Shown here one piece after another: positions 41,276 to 58,966 of a stretch of 64,000 nt of DNA (position 1 is the stretch's first letter; each line of letters begins with the position of its first letter). This DNA comes from Candidatus Binatia bacterium (GTDB lineage: Bacteria > Desulfobacterota > Binatia > HRBIN30), in assembly GCA_038245295.1 (NCBI GenBank), contig JBBRSP010000004.1, positions 1 to 64,000 on the forward strand, in the 5' to 3' direction. The position numbers and the translations under genes are program-made. The notes under the pieces are model-generated. The model did no database searches. It had not been told where the DNA came from and saw only the letters and a program-made list of their open reading frames with translations.

Positions 41276-41665
41276 TTAAACACGACGCCCATCGCGCAGA
41301 AGTCGCTCCATCTTCTCCCGCACCACGTTGGGGTCAACGATCGGCTTGGCCACATAGTCGTCGCAACCGGCCGCAAGCGCCTTCTGCTCATCTCCTGCCA
41401 TCGCCTGGGCCGTAAGAGCAATGATCGGAATGGAGCGCCCGATAGCGCTCTCGCGGATCCTTTTCGTCGCCTCCCAACCATCCATCACCGGCATCTTCAG
41501 GTCCATGAAGATCAGGTCGGGGGACTCGCGTTCGGTCGCATTGACCGCCTCTAGACCGTTGTCGGCCTCGATAATGTCAAACTCACCGATCCGACGAAGC
41601 CGGTAGACAAGGATCCGCCGGTTATCGATGTTGTCCTCAACGACGAGGATCTTCTTCTTGCTCAT
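41276..41665 (-). CDS. Single-domain response regulator (DivK/CheY-like)
   Basis: ILVVEDN, MDLKMPVMDG, ALTAQAM, GCDDYVAKP. Confidence 0.92.
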   Translation of the reverse strand: MSKKKILVVEDNIDNRRILVYRLRRIGEFDIIEADNGLEAVNATERESPDLIFMDLKMPVMDGWEATKRIRESAIGRSIPIIALTAQAMAGDEQKALAAGCDDYVAKPIVDPNVVREKMERLLRDGRRV

Positions 41666-41690: not shown

Positions 41691-41729
41691 AAAATAAAAG
41701 GGGGCCGGTCAAATTGATGACCGACCCCC
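41691..41729 (-). terminator. Rho-independent terminator of the paralog operon
   Basis: Minus strand GGGGGTCGGTCA-tcaatt-TGACCGGCCCCC followed by TTTTATTTT. Confidence 0.85.
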
Positions 41730-41784: not shown

Positions 41785-43116
41785 TCACGGAGTACCTTGT
41801 GCGACGTAACGAACAAAGTCTCCGCGGCCGGCATTCGTACCGACGTAGTTGACGTTGAAGGCGGACGATTTCCGCGTAGCCTCGCTCGTACGGAACTCTT
41901 CGGCAATCGCGAGAACGCCATGACCGGCATCCGTCTCGCTGCCGGGGACGGTGCGAATACGGGTCTGCCCCGTCAGCGTTCCCTGCACCGCAACGTTGAA
42001 GATCGAGGTTGCTTCCTGTCCAGGGAAACGGTCGATGTTGGACAACCCGACTTCACGGAAACACTGTACTCGAGTGCTCGCGGAGAATCGTTGTTCGAAC
42101 TCATTGAACACCAACAACTGCAACGAATCGACGATCTGATCGCGGCCGTTCTCGAAGTTCTCCGTGCAAGGCACGAAGGTAACTTCCGTGTTCACAGTCG
42201 TTCCAGGGCTGACAGTCGCCGAATCGAAGAAGTGATCGAGGATTAGGACCGACGGACACTGGGCGTATTCCGCCACCGGGCACTCGGCCGAACCGGTTGT
42301 TGCCCCAAGGCACAACGTGGTGTCCGCCTGAGTCGCGCTGTTCGACGAGACAGCCTGAATCCCGATCGCGTTGTAGGCGCGCACGTCGACGTTGGTCTGG
42401 TTCACGTCGTAGATCGCCGCTTCGCCGATCAGGTCGTTGCGATTGACGGGGAGCAGGGTGAGGACGCCGTCAACCTGGATACACTTCAGCTCGCCAACGA
42501 AGACACCCGGGCGGGCTGGAACCTCGCCGAGGGGCGGGCTCAAGCTGACGCAGGTACCACCGCCGGGGCAGTCCAACGGCGGACCACCGAGCACGTCGCA
42601 TTCCTGCCCCGTGCGATCTCCGCCGGAGCAGATGCCATCCCGCGTCAGGCCGCTGCTGGCTAGCCAGCCAATCGGCTGATTCGGGGTTAGTGTGACGTCG
42701 AAGTCAACTGCGCCCCAATCGGGATCACACGTTGCGCCGTTGGTGCAGTCGTTGTTGTCCCGACAAACACCCGTGATCGGGTCGATTCTGCTGATGCCGG
42801 TCGTGCAACGCGGTGTCGCGTCCACATAGTAGCAGTGGGCCGAGCGCTGCGTGGAATCGGTGTTCGTTAGCTGGATCAGGGTGTCCCGTGGAATTCCGTT
42901 GCTCAGAACACCAGCAGGGTCCGAGACCACTTTGGGAAACATAATGAGACCGGCCGCATGGTCAGACGAGACGAGCGCCGGCGTGGGGACCTGCGCTCCC
43001 GCGATGCCGGTCGTCAGGAGACCGGCAGCCAAGGCCACCCCGCCGATCCATCGATGCAAGGTTGCTCCAGAAGCCATCAGCTTTCTCCCTTGGTTCATGC
43101 TTTCGTTGCGCACCAT
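41785..43116 (-). CDS. Secreted Cys-rich surface protein, paralog 4 of 4
   Basis: Signal peptide; FPKVV, RDTLIQLTN, HCYY, GELKC, YNAI, FVPC, NEFEQRFS; alternative start 43077. Confidence 0.85.
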   Translation of the reverse strand: MVRNESMNQGRKLMASGATLHRWIGGVALAAGLLTTGIAGAQVPTPALVSSDHAAGLIMFPKVVSDPAGVLSNGIPRDTLIQLTNTDSTQRSAHCYYVDATPRCTTGISRIDPITGVCRDNNDCTNGATCDPDWGAVDFDVTLTPNQPIGWLASSGLTRDGICSGGDRTGQECDVLGGPPLDCPGGGTCVSLSPPLGEVPARPGVFVGELKCIQVDGVLTLLPVNRNDLIGEAAIYDVNQTNVDVRAYNAIGIQAVSSNSATQADTTLCLGATTGSAECPVAEYAQCPSVLILDHFFDSATVSPGTTVNTEVTFVPCTENFENGRDQIVDSLQLLVFNEFEQRFSASTRVQCFREVGLSNIDRFPGQEATSIFNVAVQGTLTGQTRIRTVPGSETDAGHGVLAIAEEFRTSEATRKSSAFNVNYVGTNAGRGDFVRYVAQGTP

Positions 43117-43135
43117 GGGTTTCACCTCACCCCTG

Positions 43136-44248
43136 CTACGGCAGCGTGATGCGGGCGTTTGCACCCGTGCGCTCGACGTGCAAGTTGGTTGCCGCCGCCG
43201 CAACGTTGCCGGCGCTATCCGAGCTGAAGCGCTCGGCGATACCGACAACTGGGTGGGACGCGTCAATCCGCACATTGGCAAACAGCGTGTTGATGCCACC
43301 GCCAGGGAGTAGACTGGATCGCATGGTCGAGATGTCCCCGATATTGAAGCTCGTCCAACAAGAGAACGACTCCGGCACGCCACCGCTGAGTTGCGTCTCA
43401 AACTCATCCCACACGGTGAACTGTAAGGTCGTGGTCGCTGTCGTGCCGTTGCGCAGATCCAGGCTGCACGGAACGAACGTCAGGTTCGTCACGACGCTGC
43501 TACTCGGTGGACAGGTTCCGCCGCTGCAATCGCTGGCAGTCGTACAGATGGCACCTGGGGTCGCACCGCCGACGCAGAGGCCAGCGGCGCCATAGGCGCT
43601 GATCGCCGGGTCAAACGATCCGTCCGGGATCGCTTCGAGGCGCAGGGCCGCCGGACAGCTCCCGTACTCCGTGTTGTTCAGGTCCAGGTTACTTGGATTG
43701 TTGTCCTGCGTGAGAGCCGGGACAGCTACCGCATTGTACTGACTGACGTCGCCGCCGATGTTTGAGGTGAGGACTGCCTCGCCTTTCAGGCGGTTGTTCG
43801 AAATCGGAGTACCGTTTACGTCAACTTCATAACAAACGAGCGAGCCGGTAAACGGAGTCGGCACCGGCGGGATTAGACCCGGATCGAAGCCAGTGCCGTC
43901 GGCACCGAATGGTTCGCCTTGGATCGTTCCGCGCCCAGACCCGACCGTCCAATGGGTCGGTTGTTGGCGGGTAAGGGTGAGGTCGAAATCCACCTCAGAG
44001 CAAAGGGGAGCACCAGAGCGGCCGGGCGCACCGTTTACGTAGAAGCAGTGGACGTGCTCGACCAGGTTGTTGGTATTGGTGAGCTTGATGGTGGTATCCC
44101 GAGTGCCATCGCGGACAACCTTCGGGAAGATCAGAATGGATCCCGGTCGCTCGGTGTAAACATCCGCTCGCGCGGCACCGACGACGACCAGAGATCCGAC
44201 GAGTGCACCTAGCAGCCAGCCGGCGCGCACGCCTTGGATCGTCCTCAT
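43136..44248 (-). CDS. Secreted Cys-rich surface protein, paralog 3 of 4
   Basis: AGGAGG RBS; signal ending AARA; PGSILIFPKVV, RDT, HCFYVN, DEFET. Confidence 0.85.
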   Translation of the reverse strand: MRTIQGVRAGWLLGALVGSLVVVGAARADVYTERPGSILIFPKVVRDGTRDTTIKLTNTNNLVEHVHCFYVNGAPGRSGAPLCSEVDFDLTLTRQQPTHWTVGSGRGTIQGEPFGADGTGFDPGLIPPVPTPFTGSLVCYEVDVNGTPISNNRLKGEAVLTSNIGGDVSQYNAVAVPALTQDNNPSNLDLNNTEYGSCPAALRLEAIPDGSFDPAISAYGAAGLCVGGATPGAICTTASDCSGGTCPPSSSVVTNLTFVPCSLDLRNGTTATTTLQFTVWDEFETQLSGGVPESFSCWTSFNIGDISTMRSSLLPGGGINTLFANVRIDASHPVVGIAERFSSDSAGNVAAAATNLHVERTGANARITLP

Positions 44249-44308
44249 GAGCCTCCTCCTTCGTCGCGTTTGAGACATGTGAGTCGTCTGGGTCAAGATC
44301 GACCTGCG

Positions 44309-45580
44309 CTACGGAAGGGTGATGAGATCTACCGTACTCGCTGCGGCACCCAGCTGGTGAATGTTGTACGCCGCACTGGTTCCGTCGCTCGTCGTGAGAC
44401 GCGCAACACCGAGTAAGCCGCGGCCGGTAGCTGACGTTCCAACGCCGCGAATACGCGTCTGGCCGGCGATCGTCCCTGCGACACCCGCGCTGAAGATCGA
44501 CCGCGCATTGTTGCGTGTGTCGATGTTCGAGATTTGCGTGTCGAGGAGACAATCAACCTTGCGGCTCGTTGAGAAGCGCTGCTCAAACTCGTTGAATACG
44601 AGGAACTGAGCGGTCGCGTCGCCAGGATCCTGGCTAAGGAAGTTGTTTCCGCACGGGATGAGAGTCAACTCTGTAGACGTGGTGGCGTTGGTGCTAGAGA
44701 GCGGGTCGATTGCGCCATCAAACAGGTGGTCGACGACGAGAGTATTCGGGCAACCTTCGTATTCCTGGTTGGCGAGGCTCTCGGGAATCGGCGGACGGGC
44801 GACCTGGGTAGTGTCGAGAGCAACACCGAGCTGCAAGATGTCAGTGCCGTTCGGCGCGATCGCGTTGCCTGTGGCCGCGAGGCCAACTGCATTGTACTTG
44901 GCAACGTCGAGGACGGGACCGCTGCTCAAGAAGGTGGCGTGGCCAGTGAACGCATTGCGTGTGGCGGACTGGTCCGGCACCGCAGGGTTGGCCGACGGGT
45001 CGAACTGGATGCAGACGAGGGCGCCGCGGAATGGATCTTCCGGCACCGGCGGGATGCCGCTACCGAGATTGCTCTGTCCCGTGTTGCAGCCCACCGCTCC
45101 GCAACCGAAGGTGCAGGGGATGTTGCTCAGCGGATTGTTGCAGAAGAACGGGCCTTCGATCGGGAAGTCGCCACGGTGCAAGCCGCCGCTGGCGTACCAC
45201 GCGAGCGGCTGCGAGCGGGTGAGGTAGATGTTGAAGTCGATCTCGGCCCAGCCTGGCGTGCAAGCAAACCCGCCGCAATCGGTCGCATCGGAGCAGACCT
45301 GCGCCGGATTGTTCGAACAGTGGCTGTTGGCGTTGATGTAGAAGCAGTGAGCCTGCTTCGCGGTCGACGTTGCCTGGTTCGTGAGTTCCAGCAACGTGTC
45401 GGTCGGTTCGGTGGTGTAGACCGCAGCGCTCGTGTCGACGATGATCTTCGGCCACACGATGATTGACGCGGGTCGGTCGCTGGTGCTCAACGCACTCGCA
45501 GAATGCGCCAACACCATCGCCACGGCTGCCCCCGTAAGGGCCGTCAAGGCGCGATAGGCGTTTTGCTTCGTCTTGCCCAT
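44309..45580 (-). CDS. Secreted Cys-rich surface protein, paralog 2 of 4
   Basis: AAAGGAG RBS; signal ending SASA; PASIIVWPKII, HCFYIN, NEFEQRFS. Confidence 0.85.
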   Translation of the reverse strand: MGKTKQNAYRALTALTGAAVAMVLAHSASALSTSDRPASIIVWPKIIVDTSAAVYTTEPTDTLLELTNQATSTAKQAHCFYINANSHCSNNPAQVCSDATDCGGFACTPGWAEIDFNIYLTRSQPLAWYASGGLHRGDFPIEGPFFCNNPLSNIPCTFGCGAVGCNTGQSNLGSGIPPVPEDPFRGALVCIQFDPSANPAVPDQSATRNAFTGHATFLSSGPVLDVAKYNAVGLAATGNAIAPNGTDILQLGVALDTTQVARPPIPESLANQEYEGCPNTLVVDHLFDGAIDPLSSTNATTSTELTLIPCGNNFLSQDPGDATAQFLVFNEFEQRFSTSRKVDCLLDTQISNIDTRNNARSIFSAGVAGTIAGQTRIRGVGTSATGRGLLGVARLTTSDGTSAAYNIHQLGAAASTVDLITLP

Positions 45581-45647
45581 TGCCCGTCTCCTTTCACTTC
45601 TCATTGCAGGCGTCGATTGTGTCATGACTAGAATTTCCTGCTCCAAA

Positions 45648-46961
45648 TCACGGACCAACGCCCGCCGGCAGGACGATGATGTCTGGGTTGGTTCGGGCGC
45701 CGATGGCGTGAGCGTTCACTGCGGCGGTGGCTGTTTGGTTCCCGAGGGTGTGGAACTCTTCAGCGACACCCAGGATACCGGAGGACGGGCGACAGCCGAG
45801 CGGACCATTGCCGTTCGAGGAAAGGATTCCGGCTCCGCAATCCAGGTCGGTCGTGCAGACAGCTCCACGGTTTGCGCCCGTCAGGCAGCGCAGCGTATTG
45901 GTGGGCGTGACACGAATATTGAGGAGGTTTGTCCCCAGAGTAGCGAGGAAGTTTTGAGATCCGGGTTGCGGGATGTCGGCAAGGCGACGGGTGAAGTGGC
46001 AGTCGAAGTTAACGGCGTCAGCACTGAGCGGTTGCTCAAATTCGTTGACAACATTGAACCCGACTCCGACCGGCGTGGCCCCCAACTCGAGCATTTCGGT
46101 GCAGGGCACGAGAGTGAGCTCAGTGCTCACGGTGGCGCCGGTGAACGCATCGACAGCACCCTCGGCGTACGTGGTGAACGCGATGCTGGCTGGGCAGACG
46201 TTGTACTCGCCACCCTGGCCGGCATAGTCGAGGAGCAGATCAAGGTCGCCATTGTTGCCGCCGTTGGCGGCAGCGTTGCCTGTGATGGTCAGCGCGTTGT
46301 ACTCGCTCTTCTGGCCCGTGGCGGTGGCTTCGATGAGAGCCTCACCCTTGAGCTGGTTGCCTGCGAAGGGAGTGTCGCCGTCCTGTTGAACCTGGACGCA
46401 CTTGAGCTCGCCGACGAAGTCAGTACCAACTGGGAGCGGGGTCCAACGCGTCCCCTGCACTCCGGTCTCCAGACCTGGGCAGGCCTGAGGATCCGTTGGC
46501 GAGGGATTCGGTCCAACTTGCACGGTCTGGCACTGGCAGGGCTGACCGACGCGGCAAGAAGGATCCATGGAAGCGTAACGACCTGTCGAGGCGCGCCACA
46601 TGGTTGGCTGCTGCGCCGTGAGGATCAGGTCGAAATCCTGGCTGTTGCACGAGCGTGCACAGGTCTGACCTGCAGCGCAGTCCTGATCGAGATTACATGC
46701 CTGAGCCGTTTCCACACCGTTCTGCGCACATCGCCCCGTCCCGTTGACGTAGAAGCAGTGCACGTACGTCTGCAGATTCGAAGTGGTGCTCAAGGTTACG
46801 AGAGTGTCGCGCGTACCGTCCGACACAATCTTTGGATAGATCACCACTGACCCCGGCATGTCTGTTGTGACATCCGCTCGGGCCTGCCCCACATTGAGGA
46901 TCAAGGCAGCGAGCAGTACCCCCAGGCCAGACAGCCAAGGACTCCGCTTAAACCCACGCAT
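45648..46961 (-). CDS. Secreted Cys-rich surface protein, paralog 1 of 4
   Basis: AAAGGAGG RBS; signal ending QARA; PGSVVIYPKIV, HCFYVN, GELKC, NEFEQ. Confidence 0.85.
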   Translation of the reverse strand: MRGFKRSPWLSGLGVLLAALILNVGQARADVTTDMPGSVVIYPKIVSDGTRDTLVTLSTTSNLQTYVHCFYVNGTGRCAQNGVETAQACNLDQDCAAGQTCARSCNSQDFDLILTAQQPTMWRASTGRYASMDPSCRVGQPCQCQTVQVGPNPSPTDPQACPGLETGVQGTRWTPLPVGTDFVGELKCVQVQQDGDTPFAGNQLKGEALIEATATGQKSEYNALTITGNAAANGGNNGDLDLLLDYAGQGGEYNVCPASIAFTTYAEGAVDAFTGATVSTELTLVPCTEMLELGATPVGVGFNVVNEFEQPLSADAVNFDCHFTRRLADIPQPGSQNFLATLGTNLLNIRVTPTNTLRCLTGANRGAVCTTDLDCGAGILSSNGNGPLGCRPSSGILGVAEEFHTLGNQTATAAVNAHAIGARTNPDIIVLPAGVGP

Positions 46962-47148: not shown

Positions 47149-49887
47149 TCACGGACTGCGACGAACGACGATCTGAACGGCGGGCCCGATGTTCTGGGCG
47201 ACGGCTTTGTCACGCACCTGGAGGGTGAGCACAGTGTCACCGGACGGAAACGCGGTATTGGCCGTCGTCACATAACAGAACTGTCGCGCCGTGGATGGTA
47301 AGCCAGGGCTGATTGCACCTTCATTGCCGTCGGCCGCGAGCGTGCAGGGATCGGCCACCGGCGAGTGCGATTCGAAGCGACAAGCGAAGTCGATTAACGC
47401 ATTGGTGACGCCGTTGCTCGGGCCGAAATCGGTCGGACTGAATCCAGGTACGCCGCCGCCCCCCTGGGCAATCGGACCGGCGTCGCAGATCGCGGTGCTG
47501 CCATTGCCGAGAGCCCGATCGGACTGCAGCTGAAAATCGGGGCGCGTCGAACCGTTGGGCGTCGGCTGAGGCACGCTGTCACCGACCGCCGCACCGCTGT
47601 TACCTGGACGCACCTCCGCGACCAACAAGAATCCGTTCGGGGCGGACACCGGAAACACCCGGCGTCCCAACCCGTCGAAAACGGGAGTCGGTGTCGGCGC
47701 GCCGGCACAGTTGCAGAATGGATCGTTGCAGAAATAGCAGCCGTTGGCGTTCACGACGCCAAAGAAGGCGACGACGGGACCCGCCAGGCTTGATGTCGGT
47801 GTCCGCGTCGGCGTCGCGGTACCTGTCGTCGAGGCGGTCCGAGTGATGGTCGGCGTTCCCGTGACAGTTGGGCTGCCGGTATCCGTCGGTTGCGCCGATT
47901 GCGTCCGCGTCACCGTTGACGTCGGGGAGCTGGTCTGGGTGCGCGTCGGCGTATCCGTCCGACTGGGTGTCGCGCTCGGTGTATCCGTCGGGAATGGCGT
48001 GGGCGTGCGCGTCCACGAGGGCGTGCCCGTAGACGACGCAGTCCGCGTCGCGGTTTGGGTCGGCGTAATCGTCGGCGTGCGGGTCCCCGTCCCGGTTGGC
48101 GTCTCGGTACGGGTCGGCGTCTGACTCGCCGTGGATGTCGGTGTCGGCGTCGACGTGGGTTCGGCGGTCTCTGTCCGCGTCCGGCTCGGAGTCGCCGTCG
48201 GCGTGTCGGTACGTGTCGCGGTGTCGGTGGGCGATGCCGTCGGCGTACGCGTCAACGATGGCGTCGCCGTTTGAGTCAGGGTGTTCGTGACTGTACGCGT
48301 GATGCTGCTCGTGAACGTCGGCGTCGACGTCCGCGTCGGAGTCTCGCTGGGCAGGCCGGTGAACGTCCAACTCGCGGTCACGGTTGCTGTCGCCGTGCGG
48401 GTCGCCGTGTCGGTGGCTGTGATGGATGGGGTACGCGTATTCGTCGGGCTCGGCGAGACGGTCATGGTCTGACTGGGCGTGCCGGTATTGGTGGCCGTCA
48501 AGGTCGGCGTGGGGGTGCGGGTCACCGTCGGCGTGATTGTCCTGGAGGCGCTCGGCAGCCCGGTCACCGTGCGCGATGGGGTGCTGGTCACCGTATCGCT
48601 GGCGGTCGGCGTTGCGCTACGCGTCGGGGTGTCGGTCGAGGTGGGCGTCGCACTCCCCGTCGGCGTCGCGGTTCGCGTGCTGGTCGGCGCCAATGAGCTT
48701 GTAGGCGTAATCGTCGGCGACAGGGTCACGCTCGGCGATCGTGTCGCCGAGGGCAGCGGCGTGAAGGTCAACGTCACGGTCGCCGACGGTGTCAGCGTGC
48801 GCGTCGCCGTTTTGCTCGGCGTCAGACTGGGGCTGGCGCTCGGGGTTGGACTCTCACTGCGGGTCGGTGAAGCACTTGGCGTTGTTGTTCGACTCGCCGA
48901 GGCCGTCCGCGTCAGAGTCACTGTCATCGTGCGGCTCGGCGTTTGTGAGATGGTTGGTGAGCTGGTCGCTGTTCCGGTCAACGTTACCGTACGCGTGACG
49001 CTCGGCGTCGCCGTGCGGCTTGGCGTCGAGGTGCGGCTTGGCGTCGCCGAGTGGGTCGGCGTCGCGGTGCGCGTATCGGTGGGCTCGGGGGTCGCCGTTG
49101 CCGTCAGCGTCATGGTCGGCGTTGGCGTAAAACTTTCGGTGGGTGACGGCGACCGGGTCGGTGTATCGGTGCGCGTTGGCGTCAGACTCGGCGACGGTGT
49201 CTCGGTTGGCGTCGCTGTCTCGCTTGGTGTGTCGGTTACCGTACGTGTCGCCGTCAAGCTGGGTGTCGCTGTGCGCGTCGACGTCTCGCTGCGCGTTGGG
49301 GTTGTCGATCGGCTCGGGGTCTCGGTTGGCGTCGCGGACAGGGTCTGCGTCGGCGAGGTGCTTGGCGTTGAGGTGATTGTCGGTATCGGCGACTCGGTTG
49401 GCGTCAACGTCGGCTCTGGCGACGGTGTGGATGACGGCTGCGCGGTGGGTGTGGCGCTAGCCTCGATCAGCGTCGCCGTGGGCGTTGGCTCCACCTCGGT
49501 CGGAGAGCTTGTTGGCTCAGCCGTCGGCGAAACGGAACTTGGTGTATCGGTCGGCGAGGGTACCGACTCGGTTGGTGTCGGCGACCCAGGGGTCGGCGTC
49601 GCGGTGTCGGGCTCGCCGAGAAGCCGGATCACCCCAACCACATCCGCCGCGCTCAGAACCTGGTCGGCATTGACGTCTGCGCCAGCACAGGTGGTACCCC
49701 GGAATATCGCGGCTCCAACCGAGATTACGTCGGCCGGCGTGCGCATCCCATCACAATCGGCATCGCCGTCGAGCCCCCACCCGACCGACGGTAAGGCCAG
49801 ACACAGGATGAACATCCTGCAGAGCCAAGTGAAGCGCCCTGGCGCTGTAGCGTTCCGGATGACTTTCACGACAACCTCTTCACGCAT
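47149..49887 (-). CDS. Giant secreted Thr/Pro-stalk protein (dockerin-like N-terminus, Cys-rich C-terminal domain)
   Basis: GDADCDG...GADVNADQVLSAAD; about 610 aa T/P/S linker; LGNGS.AICD, DFACRF; start uncertain. Confidence 0.85.
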   Translation of the reverse strand: MREEVVVKVIRNATAPGRFTWLCRMFILCLALPSVGWGLDGDADCDGMRTPADVISVGAAIFRGTTCAGADVNADQVLSAADVVGVIRLLGEPDTATPTPGSPTPTESVPSPTDTPSSVSPTAEPTSSPTEVEPTPTATLIEASATPTAQPSSTPSPEPTLTPTESPIPTITSTPSTSPTQTLSATPTETPSRSTTPTRSETSTRTATPSLTATRTVTDTPSETATPTETPSPSLTPTRTDTPTRSPSPTESFTPTPTMTLTATATPEPTDTRTATPTHSATPSRTSTPSRTATPSVTRTVTLTGTATSSPTISQTPSRTMTVTLTRTASASRTTTPSASPTRSESPTPSASPSLTPSKTATRTLTPSATVTLTFTPLPSATRSPSVTLSPTITPTSSLAPTSTRTATPTGSATPTSTDTPTRSATPTASDTVTSTPSRTVTGLPSASRTITPTVTRTPTPTLTATNTGTPSQTMTVSPSPTNTRTPSITATDTATRTATATVTASWTFTGLPSETPTRTSTPTFTSSITRTVTNTLTQTATPSLTRTPTASPTDTATRTDTPTATPSRTRTETAEPTSTPTPTSTASQTPTRTETPTGTGTRTPTITPTQTATRTASSTGTPSWTRTPTPFPTDTPSATPSRTDTPTRTQTSSPTSTVTRTQSAQPTDTGSPTVTGTPTITRTASTTGTATPTRTPTSSLAGPVVAFFGVVNANGCYFCNDPFCNCAGAPTPTPVFDGLGRRVFPVSAPNGFLLVAEVRPGNSGAAVGDSVPQPTPNGSTRPDFQLQSDRALGNGSTAICDAGPIAQGGGGVPGFSPTDFGPSNGVTNALIDFACRFESHSPVADPCTLAADGNEGAISPGLPSTARQFCYVTTANTAFPSGDTVLTLQVRDKAVAQNIGPAVQIVVRRSP

Positions 49888-49951
49888 GGGGTAGAGCCCT
49901 TTGCAACCAACCACACGAGCAATAATCCCTCATCAATCACGCCCAATCATT

Positions 49952-52720
49952 CTAGGGCGTAGGCGTCGCCGTCGCTGTGTCCGTAGCCGTGCGCGTCGCG
50001 GTCGGCGTGCGAGTTGGACTTACCGTACGCGTCGGCGTCGCGCTGTTGGTGGCAGTGATCGAGGGTGTCGCGGTGATCGTCGGTGTCGCCGTCACGGTTC
50101 CGGTCTGGGTTCGTGTTCTTGTCCCGGTCACGGTCGGCGTCGCCGTCCGCGTCGGCGTCTGGGTAATGGTCGCGACGCGAACGACGATCTGCGACAGCGG
50201 CCCTAGGTTGCCCGCCTGGTCACGCAGCGTCACCGACAAGATCGATTCACCCTGCGGTAGAGCCTCCGTGGCGGTGAGATAGCTACAGAACTGTACCCGC
50301 GAGGTGCTGTTGATGAGCTTCGGGTCACGCGTCGGATCGGTAATCGTGCAAGGGTTCAGGGCGCTCGTCTGGGGATCGAACCGGCAAGCGAAATCCACCA
50401 AGGCATCGGTGACCATGCCATCGGCGTCGGTGAACTGCGGCGGATCGATCGCCGGGACACCACCTCCTCCGGCTGAGACCGGACCAACGTCACACACGGC
50501 GGCGCTACCGTTACCCAGCGGGCGGTTACTCTCGATCCATAGATCAGGGCGACCTGCTCCTGCCGGACCAAGGCTCGCCCCCGGCAATATGCCACTCGCA
50601 CCGGTCCCTCCCTCGATGACGATGAGGAACAAACCACTGCCAACCGAAAAGACCCGGCGCCCCTGCCCGTCGATCTCGGGGGTCGGCGTCGGCGTCAGCA
50701 CACAGCTCGAATTGCAGCAGCCAGTGCATCCGTCGACACTATTGAGAACCGAGAGGACGAGCACCTTCGGTCCCTGCCCGGTGGGCGTCGCCGACGGAGT
50801 TGCCGTTCGCGTCGCCGTCCACGTCGGCGTGCCGGTGTTGGGGTAGGTCGAGCTCGGCGTCGCGGTCGAGGTCACCGTCGCAGTGTCGCTTGGCGTCGAC
50901 GTCAGCGTTTCGGTGGGTGTCCACGTGGCAGTCGGACTAGACGTGCGCGTTCGCGTCGGCGTCCGCGTAATCGTTGGCGTCACGGTCGGCGTGGCAGTTA
51001 CTGTCGGTGTTTGCGTCAGGGTTGCGGTTGGCGTGTTCGTCATCGTACGCGTTGGCGTTGCGCTGCGCGTGCGGGTTTCGGAGGCGGTCGGCGTCGCCGT
51101 CGTAGTCGGAGACTGCGTCGCAGTCGACGTGCGGCTCGGCGTCGCCGTGAGGCTCGGCGTGTCGGTGAAAGTCGGCGTCTGGGTGGTCGTCAGCGTCAGG
51201 CTTGGGGTCGCACTCGAGGTCGGCGTTGACGTCACGCTGGGCGTGCTCGTCTCGGTGCCCGTCTGGGTTGCGGTCGCCGTCGCACTCGGCGACGCGGACG
51301 GAATCGCCGTCCGAGTCACCGTGGGCGATTGCGTCGCTGTGCCGGTCACGCTCGCTGTCGCTGTTTCGGAAGGGGTCGCGGTAGTAGTCGGAGTGTTCGA
51401 CGGTGTGTTGGTGATGGTCGGGGTCCGCGTCACGGTTGCGGTGCGGGTCGGACTCGCCGTCACGGTAAGCGTCGCTGTACGCGTCGGGGAGGCGGATGCG
51501 GTCGCCGTTCGCGTCGGTGTTGCTGTCGCGGTCGGGGTTGGTGTTTGGGTTACGGTTACGGTGCGCGATGGCGAGGCGGTCGGCTTCGGCGAGAAGGTAC
51601 GCGTTCCGGTGCGTGTCGGACTCGGAGTTCGCGTCGCCGTTTCGGTCGGTGTCGGGCTATCCGTCGGCGTCGGGGTACCTGTGGCGGTGGCCGTTTCACT
51701 CGAGGTCGGTGTCGGAGTGTCGCTCGGCGTGCGCGACGCGGTTGCCGAGGCACTGGCGCTCGGCGTCGGCGACGCGCTGGGCGGGGGCGACTCGGTTGGT
51801 GTGTTGGTCGGCGTGCGGGAAGCGATCGGCGACAACGTCGCCGTCGGCGTACGTGTTCCGGGTGCGGTTTGGGTCGGGGTATGACTGATCGTCGGGGTGC
51901 GCGTCACCGATCCAGTACGGGTGATCGTCGCCGTCAACGTCGGCGTGGCGGTAAGCCTGGGCGTCTGGGAAGGCGACACCGTGACCGTCGGGGTATCTGA
52001 AACGGTGGCGGTGGCCGTCGCCTGAGTCTCGGTTGGCGTCGGCGTATGGACGACCGGCGTGTTTGTTGTCGTGGCCGTGTCACTCGGAGTCGGCTCAGGC
52101 GTGTCGGTCACCGTCGCGGTGACGCTTGCCGTAGCCGTTGGCGTTGGCGACACCGTCGGTGAGTCGCTCGGCGACGGCGACGGCGACGGCGTAGTATTCG
52201 GCGTCGCCGTCGCGGTGGGGCTCCAGGTGCGGGTGACCGACTCCGTCGGCGACGACGTCTCCGTCCTTGACGGAGTCAGGGTCACCGTTGGCGGTTTGGT
52301 TCGCGTCGGCGTTGGCGACTCCATCGGCGTGTTGGTCGGTGTAACGGTCGCTGTCTCCGAGGGCGTGTCGCTCGGCGTCGCGGTTGGCAGCGCCCTCGCT
52401 GTCTCTGTGACCGTCGGTGTTGGCGTCGGCGTCAGGGTCGGAGCCTCCGTCGAAGTGGCGGTGGCAGTAGCGGTAGCATTTGGCCCGATCAGACTTGCGG
52501 CAATCAAGTCGGCCGCGGTTACCCGACCGTCCGAATTGGCGTCGAATGCCTCGCACTGCGGGTCTTCGTGGTTGAATACAGCCTGCACCAGCGCCCCGAC
52601 GGGTACTGGCGGTCCGTCCGGGCACGTCGGCGCGATGTTTGCGCCCATTGCCCGGACGGCGACTCCCAGGGACAGCGCGGCGGCGATCAGGCGAACTCGA
52701 ATGGGCACGGGGCTCCTCAT
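49952..52720 (-). CDS. Giant secreted Thr/Pro-stalk protein, paralog with extra TP tail
   Basis: Signal peptide; [13 protein letters not shown]; about 570 aa linker; same C-terminal domain; ATGA overlap with upstream gene. Confidence 0.85.
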
Positions 52721-55098
52721 CGTAGTGGCGTCGGCGTCGCGACACGCACGACAATCTGTGCGGTTGGGCCAGGGTTGCCAAGAACGTCACGCAGCCGGGC
52801 CGTCAGTACCGTATCTCCCGGCGGGAACTGTGCGGTCGAGCCGACAAAGTCGCAAAACTGTGCCGAGGCATTGGGGCTGACCAGACGCGAATCGCGCCCG
52901 GCATCAACAATCGTACACGGGGCACCGGCGTTCACGGATGAGTCGAAGCGACAGGCAAAGTCGGCAAGGGCATCCCTAATGAGGATGCTTTGCGGCGCGA
53001 AACTCGGCGGATCGATTGCCGGAATGCCACCACCGCCGGCTGACGGTGAGCCGGTATCGCAAACCGCTGTGCTGCCATTGCCCAGGGGTCGTGAGGCGAT
53101 CACCCAGAGATCCGGACGACTGTCCGAGTTGAGCGAGTCGAGCGAGAGAGCCACGGCATTGCCGCTTGGCCCGACGGCGCCTTCGATCACCAGAACCACC
53201 TGTCCGGACAGTGAAAAGAAGACGCGGTGACCGAAGTTGTCGTACTCGGGTGCCGGCGTCGGGACCGCAGAGCAGCTCTGGTCGCAACAGAACACGCAGC
53301 CGTCAAAGCGCGTCAACGCGGCAAAGTAGACGATCGGCGGTCCGATGACCGACGGCGTTCGCGTCGGCGTGGCGGTCGAGGTTCGCGTGCGCGATGGCGT
53401 CGGCGTCGCGGTTGGCGAGCGCGTCAGCGAAGTGGTGGGCGACGGGGTCGGTGTGGGCGTCGCGGTCAGCGTCGGTGTGAAGGAGCGCGTCGACGTCGGC
53501 GAGCGGGTGAACGACGGGCTCGGTGTCGGTGTCGCGGTGCGCGTCGGCGTCAAACTCGGAGTCGGCGTGGCGGTCGGCGTTGGCGTCAACGTCACCGACG
53601 GCGAGCGGCTTGGCGTCGGGCTGCGCGTCGCTGTCGGGCTAGGGGCGGGCGGGCCGCCGGAAGTTGCACTGCGGCTCGGCGTCGACGTCACGGTTGCCGT
53701 CCGCGCTGTCGCGCTTTGGGTTGGACTGCCGCTGGGTGAGGCGCTCGTCGTCGGTCGCGTGGTTGCCACACGTGTAGCGGTGCGTGTCGCGCTGCTGGTC
53801 GGCGATGGGCTTGGGCTCGGCGGCGGCGTGATCGTGGCGCTAGCGGAAGGCGTTGACGTCGCCGTAAACGTCGTGGTCGCCGAGCCCGTGATCGACCGCG
53901 TCGGTGTTGCCGTGCGGGTCGTCGAGCTGGTGAAGGATGGCGTCGATGTGGGCATCGCCGTGCGAGTGAAGGACGGCGAACGCGTCATCGTTTGGGTCGA
54001 CGTGATGCTGCGAGTCGGTGTGGCCGTCGGCGTGACGGTCGATGTCGGTGTTTCAGTCGGCGTGGCAGTCGACGTCCAGCTGGGGCTTGGCGTCGCGGTG
54101 CGGGTCGCCGTCGCGGTCAGGCTGATCGTGACGGTCGCGGTGGCGCTATGCGTCGGCGTCGCCGTGATGCTTCTCGTCGCCGTGCCGGTTGCCGTCGGGC
54201 TGCCGCTCGGCAACGGCGTGCGGGTCGTCGTCGCCGTCGGAAGACGCGTCAGCGATGTCGTTGCGGTCGGCGACGCGGATCCGCTGGCGGTCGGCGTCGC
54301 CGTCAAGGTTGGCGTTTCGCTGCGCGTGCGCGACGGTGGCACCGGCTGAGTTGGGCTCGCGGTCGTGGTCGGCGTGCGGCTTGGCGTGTCGGTTCGCGTC
54401 GCTGTCGACTCACGCGTCTCGGTAGCGGTCGGTGAATCGGTGACACTCGCCGTCGGGGTAACCGTTGCCGTGTCGTTGGGTGTCGCCGTCGCGCTGGGCG
54501 TCCACGATCGCGTGCGTGTCGCGGGAATCGTAAAGGTAGGTGATTCAGTCGTGGTGGCGGTTCGCGTCGGAGGCAGCGTCCGTGTGGCCGTGTCACTGCG
54601 CGTTGCCGTCGCCGACGGGGTCAACGACGTAGGCGTTCCCGTCGGAGTCGCCGACTGGCTGCTGCTCGGCGATGGCGTCGCCGTCACCGTGGCGCTCGCC
54701 TCGGGTGAGGCTGTCTCAGTGGGCAGATTCGTCGGACTCGACTCAGCCGTTGGCGACTCGCTCGGAGTCGGCGTTGGCGACTCCGGCGCCATCGGTGTCT
54801 CACTCGGCTCCAGCGTCTGTGTTGGCGAGGCTGTTGGCGCGACTTGAGCCAACAATCGAACGACAGCCACGAGATCAGCGGCCGAGACACGTCCGTCCTG
54901 GTTGGAATCGCTACCGGCACAGGACGATTCGGTGGTCAACGCTAGAACCACGGCGTGCACGTCGCTCGGCGTAATCACGCCATCGCAGTCAGCGTCGCCT
55001 GGAAGCACCGCCGCGGCCGCGCGCAACGTGATGACTCCGCAGAGAAGCGCACCAGCGAGGACGCCACGTGTGCACGTATGTAAGTCGGTAAGTGCCAC
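52717..55098 (-). CDS. Giant secreted Thr/Pro-stalk protein, first of three
   Basis: Signal peptide; PGDADCDG...[13 protein letters not shown]; about 500 aa linker; same C-terminal domain. Confidence 0.85.
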
Positions 55099-56164: not shown

Positions 56165-58966
56165 TCAATCGGCGCCGCCTTCGGGAAGCAGCGCCATTGC
56201 CGCCGCCACACGTTGAGCCGCCTCCGGCTGATGCGCCAACGTGTACAACTGCCCCAGACGCTGCAACACGAGACGTGCCCCGGGAGGCGACGGCGCCGCC
56301 CACGCCTCGATCAACGCTCCTGCTTGCGAGACAGATTCAGGGCCCGGCTCCGAGCGGGCGCTGCGCAAAACGCCCAATAGAGTGCGGAAGTATTCGCCAC
56401 GCCGCACTGCCGGCACAAGATCAGCGTGTGCCAGGAGTTGAGGAACGAGGTCGCGCTCGCGACCTTGCAGCGACAACCAGGCGGCCAACACCGAAGACAA
56501 TGCGGGGTCCGCCGGCGCCACCCGACACCAGGCCGCCAGCAAACCAGATACATACTCGAAGTCCAACATGTCGGCGCGTTGCAGATAGGTCCATGCCTCG
56601 CCGAAAGCAGCGGCGTCCCACGCTACGAAGCGCGACACGTGCTCGTCGTCGGTGAAGTGGACGTGGGCCAAGCCTTGTGCCTGGCCACCGCTGTAGAAGG
56701 CGCGCGGCACACTGTACTCGAGGATCGGGTGCCGATCTTGATTGACCTTGCCGGGGTGGACGAATCGGGGTAACGCCGCCGCCGGTAACACCTCCAGACC
56801 AAGCACTGTCGTGGAACGCGTCACGCCGAGCTCCTGCAAACCGCTTGCCCGTGCCAAGGCGGCAGCGTCGGGATCCCGCAAGACCCCCTGGTCGTTGGCC
56901 GCAGCAATCACGAGGTCCCACGAGTTGGACTGAAAGACCCGCACGTAACGGAAGGTCGACTGCAGCGTCCGCAAGACGACGGCAACGTCCGCGTCCGACG
57001 ACTCGTAGGAATGGAACCACTGCACCAACACGCCGCCGAGAGCCAGACGATCAGCGATCTGCTCGAAGTACTCGTGTGTAAACAGGTTGCCGATCCCGGC
57101 TACCCAGGGATTCGAGGGCTCGCTGATCACAACGTCGTAAGGCTCGCCCTGGCTGTAAAGAAAGGTGCGCGCATCGTCGACGATCAGGCGTGTGCGCGGA
57201 TCGCCGAGCGGCTGATGGTTGACGTCGTGGAAGTAGCGTTCGGCGGCGATGACCTCGGAGGCGATCTCGACAACGTCGACCTCCTTCAATGGATGTTGCA
57301 ACAGCGCACCGACGGTCATGCCGCTGCCGTAGCCGATGACCAGCGCGCGGCGTGCCTGCGGCTGCAGGAGCACCGGCAGGTGCCCGAGCAGCAGTTGGGT
57401 GTCGGCGTCGCCGCGGCTGGACGCGTCGGCCTTGCCATTCACCCTCAGCGTCGTCTCACCGTCCTCCTGGCGTTCGACGCTCACCGTCGTCGTGGCGCCA
57501 TCGCGGTAGTACAGCAATTCCTGGATCAGGCTGTCGCGATACGAGGAGAAATCCTGCGCCGCGATTCCTTCATGCCGGCGAAACTCCCCTACCGATAACA
57601 GCTTCAGGTTCCATCCCCGAGCCAGGCCGCCACCAAGCGCCAATCCCGCCAATCCAAAGCCGACGCGGGCCAAGGCCATTGGTGCGCCGCGACGCCATTG
57701 GACGAGCGCCGCCAGGCCGATCAATACCGTGGCGCCGAGGAGAAAGGTCCCATGCAAACCAAGCAAGGGCATCAGCCATAACCCACCGCCGACGGTGCCT
57801 ACGATGGTCCCCAAGGTGTTCGCCGCCAGAACACGGCCGACAGGCTTCGACGACTCGCCCGTCGAGGCCGCCGCCTGGCTCAAGGCCGGGAACAGCAGGC
57901 CGCTCGAGATCGTCATCGGCAACATGACCAGCACCGAGACCACCAACATCATGGCCTGATGCGCCGCGAAGCCGCCGCCTTGCGCATGTACGATGTAGGT
58001 CAGACGCGCCACCCAGAACGGCAAGCGGTCGTACCAGGGCAACGAAACGAGCAGCACCGTCGCCGCCCACAAACACAATCCGACGAACCAGGCTTCGGCG
58101 CGGTCGTCCGGCGGCCGCAAGGCTCGGTAGAGCAAACTGCCAAGACCAATCCCGATGATGAATGCCGCCAGCATCACGGAAAACGCATACGAGGACGAGC
58201 CGAAAACCAAACTGCACAAGCGGATCCACGCGACTTCATAGAGCATGGCGACGGCACCACAGACGGCGGCCGCCAGCGCCACGCGCTGCGGCGAAAGACG
58301 CGACACGGCCGCCGCGTTCGGCGCCGTCGTTAAACGCGGAGCTCTCTCCGTCACCGTGAGTGAGGCGTCGAGACAATACGCCCCAACACCGATCAGGACG
58401 TTGATCAGCGCGGCGCCGACGACCGGCGCATCGAGGCCGAGCTGCGGCAAAAGCAGGAAGCCCGTGACAATGCTGCCAACGGCGGCGCCAAAGCTGTTGA
58501 CCGCGTACAGAAGCGCCACCGATCCACCGACACCGCCGCGGTCGCCTAGAACACGAGTCAGCACGGGCAGGGTCCCGCCCATCGCCAGGGTCGGTATCCC
58601 CATCGTAAGGGCACACGCGAGAATCTTTACCACCAGCCGCGTCACGCTGTGGTCGCCGAGCGACGACAGCGAGACCCAGTACAGATGCGTCAACGAATCG
58701 AACGTGGCGACAAAGGCCAAAGCGCTGAGTCCGATCGTCAACTCCAGATGGCCGTATAGTCGTAGAGGTCGCGCTGCCGTCTCGGCAAAGCCACCCCACA
58801 GGCGGGCGCCGCCGGCCAGGCCGGCCATGAAAACCGCCAACACCCCAACCTGCGCATACGCCGTGCTGCCGAGGAGTAGGGCGAAGTATTTTGCCCAAAC
58901 GACCTCGTAGACGAGACCTGTGAAGCCCGAGAGGAAGAACAACAGGGCGACGAGCGTGACTAACAT
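56165..58966 (-). CDS. Fused membrane (MFS-like) / spermidine synthase-like SAM-fold protein
   Basis: SGFTGLVYEVVW, NGKAD, IGYGSGMT, VEI, DDAR, ISEPSNPW. Confidence 0.88.
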   Translation of the reverse strand: MLVTLVALLFFLSGFTGLVYEVVWAKYFALLLGSTAYAQVGVLAVFMAGLAGGARLWGGFAETAARPLRLYGHLELTIGLSALAFVATFDSLTHLYWVSLSSLGDHSVTRLVVKILACALTMGIPTLAMGGTLPVLTRVLGDRGGVGGSVALLYAVNSFGAAVGSIVTGFLLLPQLGLDAPVVGAALINVLIGVGAYCLDASLTVTERAPRLTTAPNAAAVSRLSPQRVALAAAVCGAVAMLYEVAWIRLCSLVFGSSSYAFSVMLAAFIIGIGLGSLLYRALRPPDDRAEAWFVGLCLWAATVLLVSLPWYDRLPFWVARLTYIVHAQGGGFAAHQAMMLVVSVLVMLPMTISSGLLFPALSQAAASTGESSKPVGRVLAANTLGTIVGTVGGGLWLMPLLGLHGTFLLGATVLIGLAALVQWRRGAPMALARVGFGLAGLALGGGLARGWNLKLLSVGEFRRHEGIAAQDFSSYRDSLIQELLYYRDGATTTVSVERQEDGETTLRVNGKADASSRGDADTQLLLGHLPVLLQPQARRALVIGYGSGMTVGALLQHPLKEVDVVEIASEVIAAERYFHDVNHQPLGDPRTRLIVDDARTFLYSQGEPYDVVISEPSNPWVAGIGNLFTHEYFEQIADRLALGGVLVQWFHSYESSDADVAVVLRTLQSTFRYVRVFQSNSWDLVIAAANDQGVLRDPDAAALARASGLQELGVTRSTTVLGLEVLPAAALPRFVHPGKVNQDRHPILEYSVPRAFYSGGQAQGLAHVHFTDDEHVSRFVAWDAAAFGEAWTYLQRADMLDFEYVSGLLAAWCRVAPADPALSSVLAAWLSLQGRERDLVPQLLAHADLVPAVRRGEYFRTLLGVLRSARSEPGPESVSQAGALIEAWAAPSPPGARLVLQRLGQLYTLAHQPEAAQRVAAAMALLPEGGAD

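Follow-up and report, generated by a model that had tools for sequence, protein, structure and literature searches.

In the available portions of the published work, NpdA is a proven surface-layer (S-layer) protein, established by gene deletion and cryo-electron microscopy, whose orthologs are defined through BLASTP to WP_011797163 and which also makes tubes (nanopods) around vesicles (PMC10765051). It forms oligomers resistant to sodium dodecyl sulfate and a tetragonal lattice, and its reassembly required lipopolysaccharide (PMC3110197). Haliea salexigens DSM 19537 is among the organisms listed with npdA and imaged (PMC10765051). A second point of comparison is the ASRAH fold, which, in the available part of its description, is defined by a Trp in strand 1 and an Asn in strand 2 and is predicted to bind sugars; ASRAH domains are known as tetramers, dyads or tetrads, and the pocket of ASRT is partly built at the dimer interface (PMC2739507). 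Here, we describe an array of four paralogous genes in a stretch of 64,000 nucleotides (the window) at the start of contig JBBRSP010000004.1 from a Candidatus Binatia bacterium (GCA_038245295.1; genome G000 below). The family to which they belong is encoded as pairs of A- and B-type proteins, is predicted to have a tandem ASRAH fold, and appears to be remotely homologous to a family that we identify indirectly as NpdA.

The initial annotation of the array had proposed an operon of four diverged paralogs with strong ribosome-binding sites, a shared but unnamed core and no C-terminal transmembrane segment, and the open reading frames (ORFs) agree with it on each of these points. The four ORFs (370–443 aa) are separated by gaps of 67, 60 and 19 nt (genes 1-2, 2-3 and 3-4), and Shine-Dalgarno-like sequences are present 5' of them (AAAGGAGG, AAAGGAG, AAGGAGGAGG and GAGGTG). 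The shared motifs occur in the same order in all four proteins, with slight deviations in gene 4, which is without PGS and has AIA in place of GVA and SAFN in place of AAxN. Pairwise bit scores between the paralogs were 87–196, a similarity far above chance (27% identity, E 9e-28, for P0003 and P0002). Each protein begins with a hydrophobic segment that ends in an AxA-type site, read from the sequence, and beyond this signal segment the maximum 19-residue hydropathy is 0.87–1.34, so that no later transmembrane-like stretch is seen; signal peptides were judged from sequence and hydropathy. Pfam and NCBIfam searches with all four proteins gave no match at E 0.1, searches of PDB sequences with the A1, A2 and A8 profiles gave a single chance row (E 2.5) and none that was real, and tblastn against plasmids gave zero matches. 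A signal peptide with no other recognised domain and no anchor is also the combination used as a criterion for NpdA.

To examine the fold, the mature product of gene 3 was modelled with AlphaFold, and two all-beta domains were predicted (predicted local distance difference test, pLDDT, 90.6; predicted template modelling score, pTM, 0.89), in line with the beta-rich proteins anticipated by the initial annotation. Domain 1 matched TM1070 (1nc7) with Z 9.0 (root mean square deviation, rmsd, 1.8; 106 residues aligned) and ASRT with Z 5.7, the next unrelated row having 4.2. For the isolated domain 2 of gene 2 (pLDDT 92.1), the match to 1nc7 had Z 11.7 (rmsd 3.7; 111 aligned) and that to ASRT Z 7.8, the next row having 5.5. 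Since both domains match TM1070 and ASRT, each chain is, in these models, a dyad of ASRAH-type beta-sandwiches, and the finding that the second modelled domain shares the fold of the first is new in this analysis. The profiles of the N and C halves gave no significant match to each other; because the halves cannot be aligned by sequence, the internal duplication is read from the fold searches. Foldseek with the full two-domain model returned mostly poor long alignments, 1nc7 being the sole true domain match, and a viral fold library gave nothing clear (TM-score <=0.24).

Identity in the structural alignments to ASRAH proteins was only 5–10%. The Asn at the end of ASRAH strand 2 is kept as N30 of the mature gene 3 product (97% conserved; strand 22–30), in domain 1 only, and domain 2 shows Pro-Cys at the putative equivalent place. 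No strand-1 Trp was found among the columns of strand 10–18 that are at least 80% conserved, and the pocket motif of the ASRT subfamily, SHEshChhN, is absent from the family consensus. By the models, the family has the ASRAH fold yet misses one of its two defining residues.

Profiles divide the family into types A and B, the order in the array being A-B-A-B. Among 251 database proteins scored, 98 were A, 116 were B (330–480 aa) and 5 were intermediate, the other 32 lying outside the length filter of 330–480 aa. In 32 array regions from six genomes, B stands directly behind A in 42/42 A genes, and 7/49 B genes have no preceding A, one of them at a contig end and one being a third-position C type; this count takes the frameshifted halves in L148 and in L151 as single genes and covers the divergent D-type locus in one other genome only. 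The four proteins are two A-B pairs and not equivalent subunits.

G000 has 15 family copies in five arrays (4, 4, 3, 2 and 2), and the homologs that carry a name are from Candidatus Binatia. At E <=0.001, 1,612 sequence clusters (50% identity) matched, with taxonomy known for the best 150. The family was found in 30/30 relatives sampled (18 of the same family and 12 of the same order), with 10–25 matches each in a search with a 144-row alignment, the number of matches per genome not being equal to copy number. In a class-wide sample, 15/15 genomes of the same order matched, and 2/105 from other orders did so weakly. This is a real, order-wide, paired protein family. In an 87-row FastTree phylogeny, from which rows shorter than 270 aa or without the N-terminal motif were excluded, each array position mostly clusters with its own orthologs across families; A and B are separated at low support (0.66 and 0.39), and a 15-protein IQ-TREE phylogeny did not separate them. 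Recent tandem duplication and antigenic-variation cassettes were considered and rejected because of these position-specific orthologs.

Two further types were observed. A divergent D-type pair (G000:C13:15512-17966) has a minimal core without Cys inserts, and its second gene has a long Thr/Pro linker at the N-terminus; weak-scoring loci resembling it occur in other genomes searched. A C-type gene (G000:C4:157934-158956) is in third position after an A-B pair and adjoins lptD, and a clade with support 1.0 unites its orthologs from two further genomes.

The two weakly matching genomes from other orders carry sister families, one of which was expanded to 85 rows (alignment A7; P0256-P0258). This sister family aligned to the A/B family with probability 97.6 with signal peptides and 94.1 for mature chains, and to the NpdA-type family described below with 97.9 as a whole and 86.1 when the second domains were compared. 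Sister-family loci were seen at L017, L019 and L020 (G044), L018 (G120) and G131:C2:117530-121987, the last being a tandem of four adjacent matches.

A degenerate strand-4 motif of the sister family, relaxed in part to suit NpdA, was used as a pattern in GTDB and retrieved at least 120 loci, all judged by inspection to belong to one proteobacterial family, whose proteins are annotated as hypothetical in databases. We refer to these as NpdA-type, and all comparisons with NpdA were made with this retrieved family (alignment of 59 complete genes) and not with a named NpdA sequence. Its genera shared with the NpdA tables are Haliea, Dokdonella, Tahibacter, Rudaea, Chiayiivirga and Usitatibacter. 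Same-strand gspD was present in 51/60 NpdA-type loci having at least 4 kb upstream, and H. salexigens DSM 19537 has a single NpdA-type copy, behind gspL/M/C/D. At several loci (L024, L029, L044, L050, L072 and L089), it was also observed that a peptidyl-prolyl isomerase gene is often 3' of the NpdA-type gene, followed, by eye, by an ABC-type polysaccharide export pair; such neighbours suggest a folding and glycan-export module.

Profiles were compared without signal peptides, with E-values for single comparisons. The first domains of the A/B family matched those of the NpdA-type family with probability 89.9 (E 1.7e-6), the score being 46, where 6 column shuffles reached at most 17.7. After deletion of the search motif, the probability was 78.6 (E 1.7e-5) and the score 38.6 versus 16.6 in 10 shuffles. 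Whole mature chains gave 77.6 (E 1.9e-5). When the NpdA-type first-domain profile was run against 42,933 six-frame ORFs, the paralogs took ranks 1-5, unchanged with the search motif removed, and 9/15 paralogs were among the matches listed (best 120). These comparisons point to a remote homology to NpdA that is new in this analysis, and it is at this level of homology, to a family indirectly identified as NpdA, that the likeness to S-layer proteins suggested in the initial annotation holds.

The reading that we favour, at about even odds, is that the four proteins are subunits of a heteromeric, S-layer-type surface lattice that belong to an NpdA superfamily and work as A:B pairs. Under such a model, the chains would be exported by Sec, and disulfides would form in the periplasm; lptD adjoins another array, the cell is taken to be diderm, and the outer membrane would be crossed through the unlinked type II secretion system (T2SS) of the genome. 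One A and one B together would supply four ASRAH domains, the tetrad that the fold favours, and a chain with two domains prone to form tetramers could lead to a square lattice. Such a surface lattice, square in type, would be tiled by A:B units whose variable Cys-rich loops point outward, proteins with Thr/Pro linkers ("stalk" proteins) might be tethered accessories, and different arrays may supply position- or condition-specific tiles rather than interchangeable copies.

A number of observations weigh against this lattice proposal. The identification of the retrieved family as NpdA is indirect, from taxa, size and gsp context, and the homology of the A/B family to it is remote. Second domains alone gave a probability of 2.0 against the NpdA-type family, which is not significant, and the reciprocal matches were individually not significant (E 0.7-2.4). 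With the full-length NpdA-family profile, the paralogs ranked only 2, 4, 6, 10 and 55. With the A2 profile, the NpdA-type gene was detected in only 1/5 genomes that carry one (E 0.008) and was missed in H. salexigens. The T2SS (gsp) cluster of G000 is on contig C15, unlinked to all its arrays (neighbours by eye), and gspD was present in 1/32 array regions, on the opposite strand and about 8 kb off, against the 51/60 NpdA-type loci with same-strand gspD; a place directly 3' of a gsp cluster is one of the criteria for NpdA. (In that region, L151:92-2842 of G020, gspD is ~8 kb from an orthologous ABAB array, with a Lon-like gene between.) A and B are obligate pairs in several arrays, whereas NpdA is one dominant gene; most S-layers are built from one protein according to the available part of PMC12175726, and G000 keeps 15 paralogs against the usual single S-layer protein. 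Some genomes have several NpdA-type genes of their own, so that a homolog is not necessarily a lattice subunit. Codon adaptation index (CAI) percentiles of the array genes are 20-56, which does not mark them as highly expressed; the ribosomal genes have a mean CAI of 0.69, barely above the genome median of 0.68, and the codon test is therefore powerless here. No RNA runs were listed, which bears on expression in neither direction. Finally, a shared fold by itself shows no function. The family probably works like NpdA, but we do not file it as NpdA because gsp is not linked to the arrays, the homology is remote, and the lattice, formed by one polypeptide in NpdA, is here a prediction.

In some chains, an A unit and a B unit are joined. 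P0151 combines A and B with a dockerin-like segment, a Thr/Pro linker and a stalk C-terminal domain (labels from sequence). In P0122 and P0233, which may be fusions through a missed stop, B is followed by a Thr/Pro linker and by a hydrophobic segment resembling an anchor, as read from their sequences. No longer fused forms were found among 8,000 candidates searched with A2, a null that is weak evidence since an earlier cluster search had already given such forms. Separately, the long secreted proteins P0248, P0254 and P0190 were observed to have, behind Thr/Pro linkers and repeat domains, a copy of the first domain that is truncated and then a complete B-like unit.

Stalk genes also lie next to the array. 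A stalk homolog is 5' of the ABAB array in 5/5 other genomes (6/6 counting G000), the receiver-domain gene is kept behind it in 5/5 (72-77% identity), and the whole unit stalk - ABAB - receiver is present in 5/5, spanning four families. These fusions and neighbours, together with the match of both domains to the predicted sugar binders TM1070 and ASRT and the conservation of orthologs position by position, are what might be expected if the A:B pairs were discrete envelope complexes and not a lattice, that is, heads that bind sugars or small ligands, periplasmic or on Thr/Pro stalks, with a ligand for each array. We think this a real alternative but rather unlikely, considering that the conserved columns show neither the pocket signature of ASRT nor a Trp in strand 1, that no sugar-metabolism or transporter genes adjoin the array in the window, and that the family, with no Pfam or PDB sequence match, has its nearest sequence relation in the NpdA-type proteins and not in an ASRAH entry.

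The A/B proteins are acidic, with low Lys+Arg, and rich in Cys. Small Cys-rich inserts are placed in different loops in different paralogs; they weakly resemble TIGR04201 (one homolog, E 0.002, under the cut-off). Five core cysteines are near-invariant. The mature Cys count is odd in 77/99 B rows counted (of 117) and in 33/89 A rows (of 92), where parity tracks one position: with Cys the count is even (31/32), and with Trp it is odd (25/25). In the NpdA-type family, the count is odd in 2/53. An unpaired core Cys in A/B proteins is thus likely from these counts.

Such a Cys may cross-link subunits if, instead of coating the whole cell, the pairs form a polymer (filament, sheath or tube) of a nanopod-like or stalk-associated kind. 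The near-invariant cysteines, the excess of odd counts in B over the NpdA-type family, the ordered A-B-A-B operons with conserved positions and the tubes that NpdA makes around vesicles (PMC10765051, available portion) are all consistent with this. Still, the proteins have no pilin-type N-terminus, the window has no linked sortase, usher or chaperone gene, and the confident folding of an isolated second domain (pLDDT 92) gives no sign that a donor strand is needed. The comparison with pilin and cohesin folds suggested with the initial annotation was made, and none stood out from background-level rows (pilin Z <=4.9). Polymerisation of this kind seems improbable to us. A role as secreted enzymes or as barrels of the outer membrane, the outcomes named at the outset as contrary to self-assembly, is most improbable: the invariant E-x-E of the NEFE motif can be read as catalytic or metal-binding, but the sister and NpdA-type families also have an equivalent acidic motif, the two models are of soluble beta-sandwiches, and the fold searches raised neither an enzyme nor a barrel above background.

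The features of the region are given in table 1. A scan for terminator-like sites found 6 versus 4.7 expected; as this is near expectation, only the position of the hairpin, behind gene 4, is suggestive. The C-terminal domain of the stalk proteins, which contains Cys and has no Pfam match, was also seen in 11 ORFs of G000 (window 47149-55098, reverse strand, and contigs C2, C4, C5, C19, C28, C37 and C41). At 56165-58966 (reverse strand), 5' of the stalk genes, there is an ordinary fused membrane/spermidine-synthase-like protein (NF037959).

Table 1. Features of the four-gene array and its neighbours, in window coordinates
Feature	Position	Strand	Description
Gene 1 (w1)	45648..46961	-	A-type, 437 aa, signal peptide, 18 Cys
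Gene 1 tandem ASRAH-like domains			Predicted from paralogs; Cys-rich inserts in three loops
Gene 2 (w2)	44309..45580	-	B-type, 423 aa, 13 Cys
Gene 2 C-terminal domain	44312-44764		Modelled alone; matches TM1070 fold
Gene 3 (w3)	43136..44248	-	A-type, 370 aa, 10 Cys; mature chain modelled
Gene 3 N-terminal domain	about 44149-43715		Matches TM1070 fold
Gene 4 (w4)	41785..43116	-	B-type, 443 aa, 15 Cys
Intrinsic-terminator-like hairpin	41700..41729	-	12 pairs, 9 GC, and T-run; 3' of gene 4
Receiver-domain gene, stand-alone	41276..41665	-	Directly 3' of array
Stalk gene	47149..49914	-	Secreted, long Thr/Pro linker, conserved unnamed ~200-aa C-terminal domain
Second stalk paralog	49952..52720	-	Same C-terminal domain
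Third stalk paralog	52717..55098	-	Weak dockerin match PF00404, E 4.5e-4, under cut-off

S-layer proteins are difficult to recognise by sequence, and NpdA has no solved relative in sequence search. Among sequence relatives of the A/B family, NpdA alone has been tested by experiment. A literature search, with subscription journals largely outside its coverage, found no description of the A/B family and nothing linking NpdA to ASRAH. NpdA and Delftia are unmentioned in the main text, as available, of an S-layer survey (bioRxiv 2024.05.28.596244) and in the available part of PMC12175726, and the term S-layer is absent from the available main text of a river-sediment metaproteome with Binatia (bioRxiv 2022.03.11.484050). 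If the link between the families holds, NpdA would gain a candidate fold, the tandem ASRAH sandwich, and its tetragonal lattice a possible explanation; a family of no fewer than 1,612 sequence clusters would be tied to a tested function; and the Binatia would have an unusual surface lattice of obligate paralog pairs. A wider and more tentative idea, which we hold to be on the doubtful side, is that one Binatia order builds a combinatorial, disulfide-cross-linked S-layer from obligate A:B heterodimers encoded in 5-8 conserved arrays, and that NpdA, the sister families and A/B form one large, so far unrecognised tandem-ASRAH S-layer superfamily. If true, this would be the first fold assignment for NpdA, and S-layers would become predictable from sequence in uncultured lineages.

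Compared with known systems, the A/B proteins share with ASRAH proteins (TM1070, PDB 1nc7; ASRT, PDB 2ii7; DUF1362) the eight-stranded sandwich, in both domains, and the form of a secreted dyad, as in the actinobacterial ASRAH family. Unlike these, they lack the strand-1 Trp, the SHEshChhN motif and a lipobox, are disulfide-rich, and at this locus have no sugar-metabolism neighbourhood. The sister families align collinearly with A/B over the full length in profile comparisons and form a bridge to the NpdA-type family, but are patchy in the class (found at E 0.001 in 18/151 genomes, largely as weak matches) and have mostly even Cys counts; they are probably further unrecognised proteins of the NpdA superfamily. 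Slr4 of Pseudoalteromonas tunicata was the top named cluster in a language-model search, with a score of 0.76, below the threshold of 0.9, and is a lead only; in the available part of its description, it forms a p4 lattice and is beta-helical by its authors' prediction (PMC7821379). SlaA and SlaB of Sulfolobus offer a precedent for an S-layer made from two co-encoded proteins (PMC12175726, available part), although they divide the lattice and anchoring roles, whereas A and B are paralogs of one fold. With NpdA (Delftia acidovorans, Paracidovorax, Haliea), whose lattice has been imaged while the A/B family is known here from genes and models, there are differences in length (370-443 aa in A/B versus about 460-590 aa in the NpdA-type family) and in Cys (10-18, with mobile Cys-rich inserts, versus a median of 4). 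On the other hand, both have a Sec signal peptide, no Pfam domain and no anchor; the first-domain motifs are collinear (hydrophobic-P, T-x-x-x-x-x-N-T, DF-x-x-x-L, G-x-x-x-I and YNA); and, in full-length alignments, an acidic F/Y-N/D-E-x-E motif occupies the equivalent place in the second domain.

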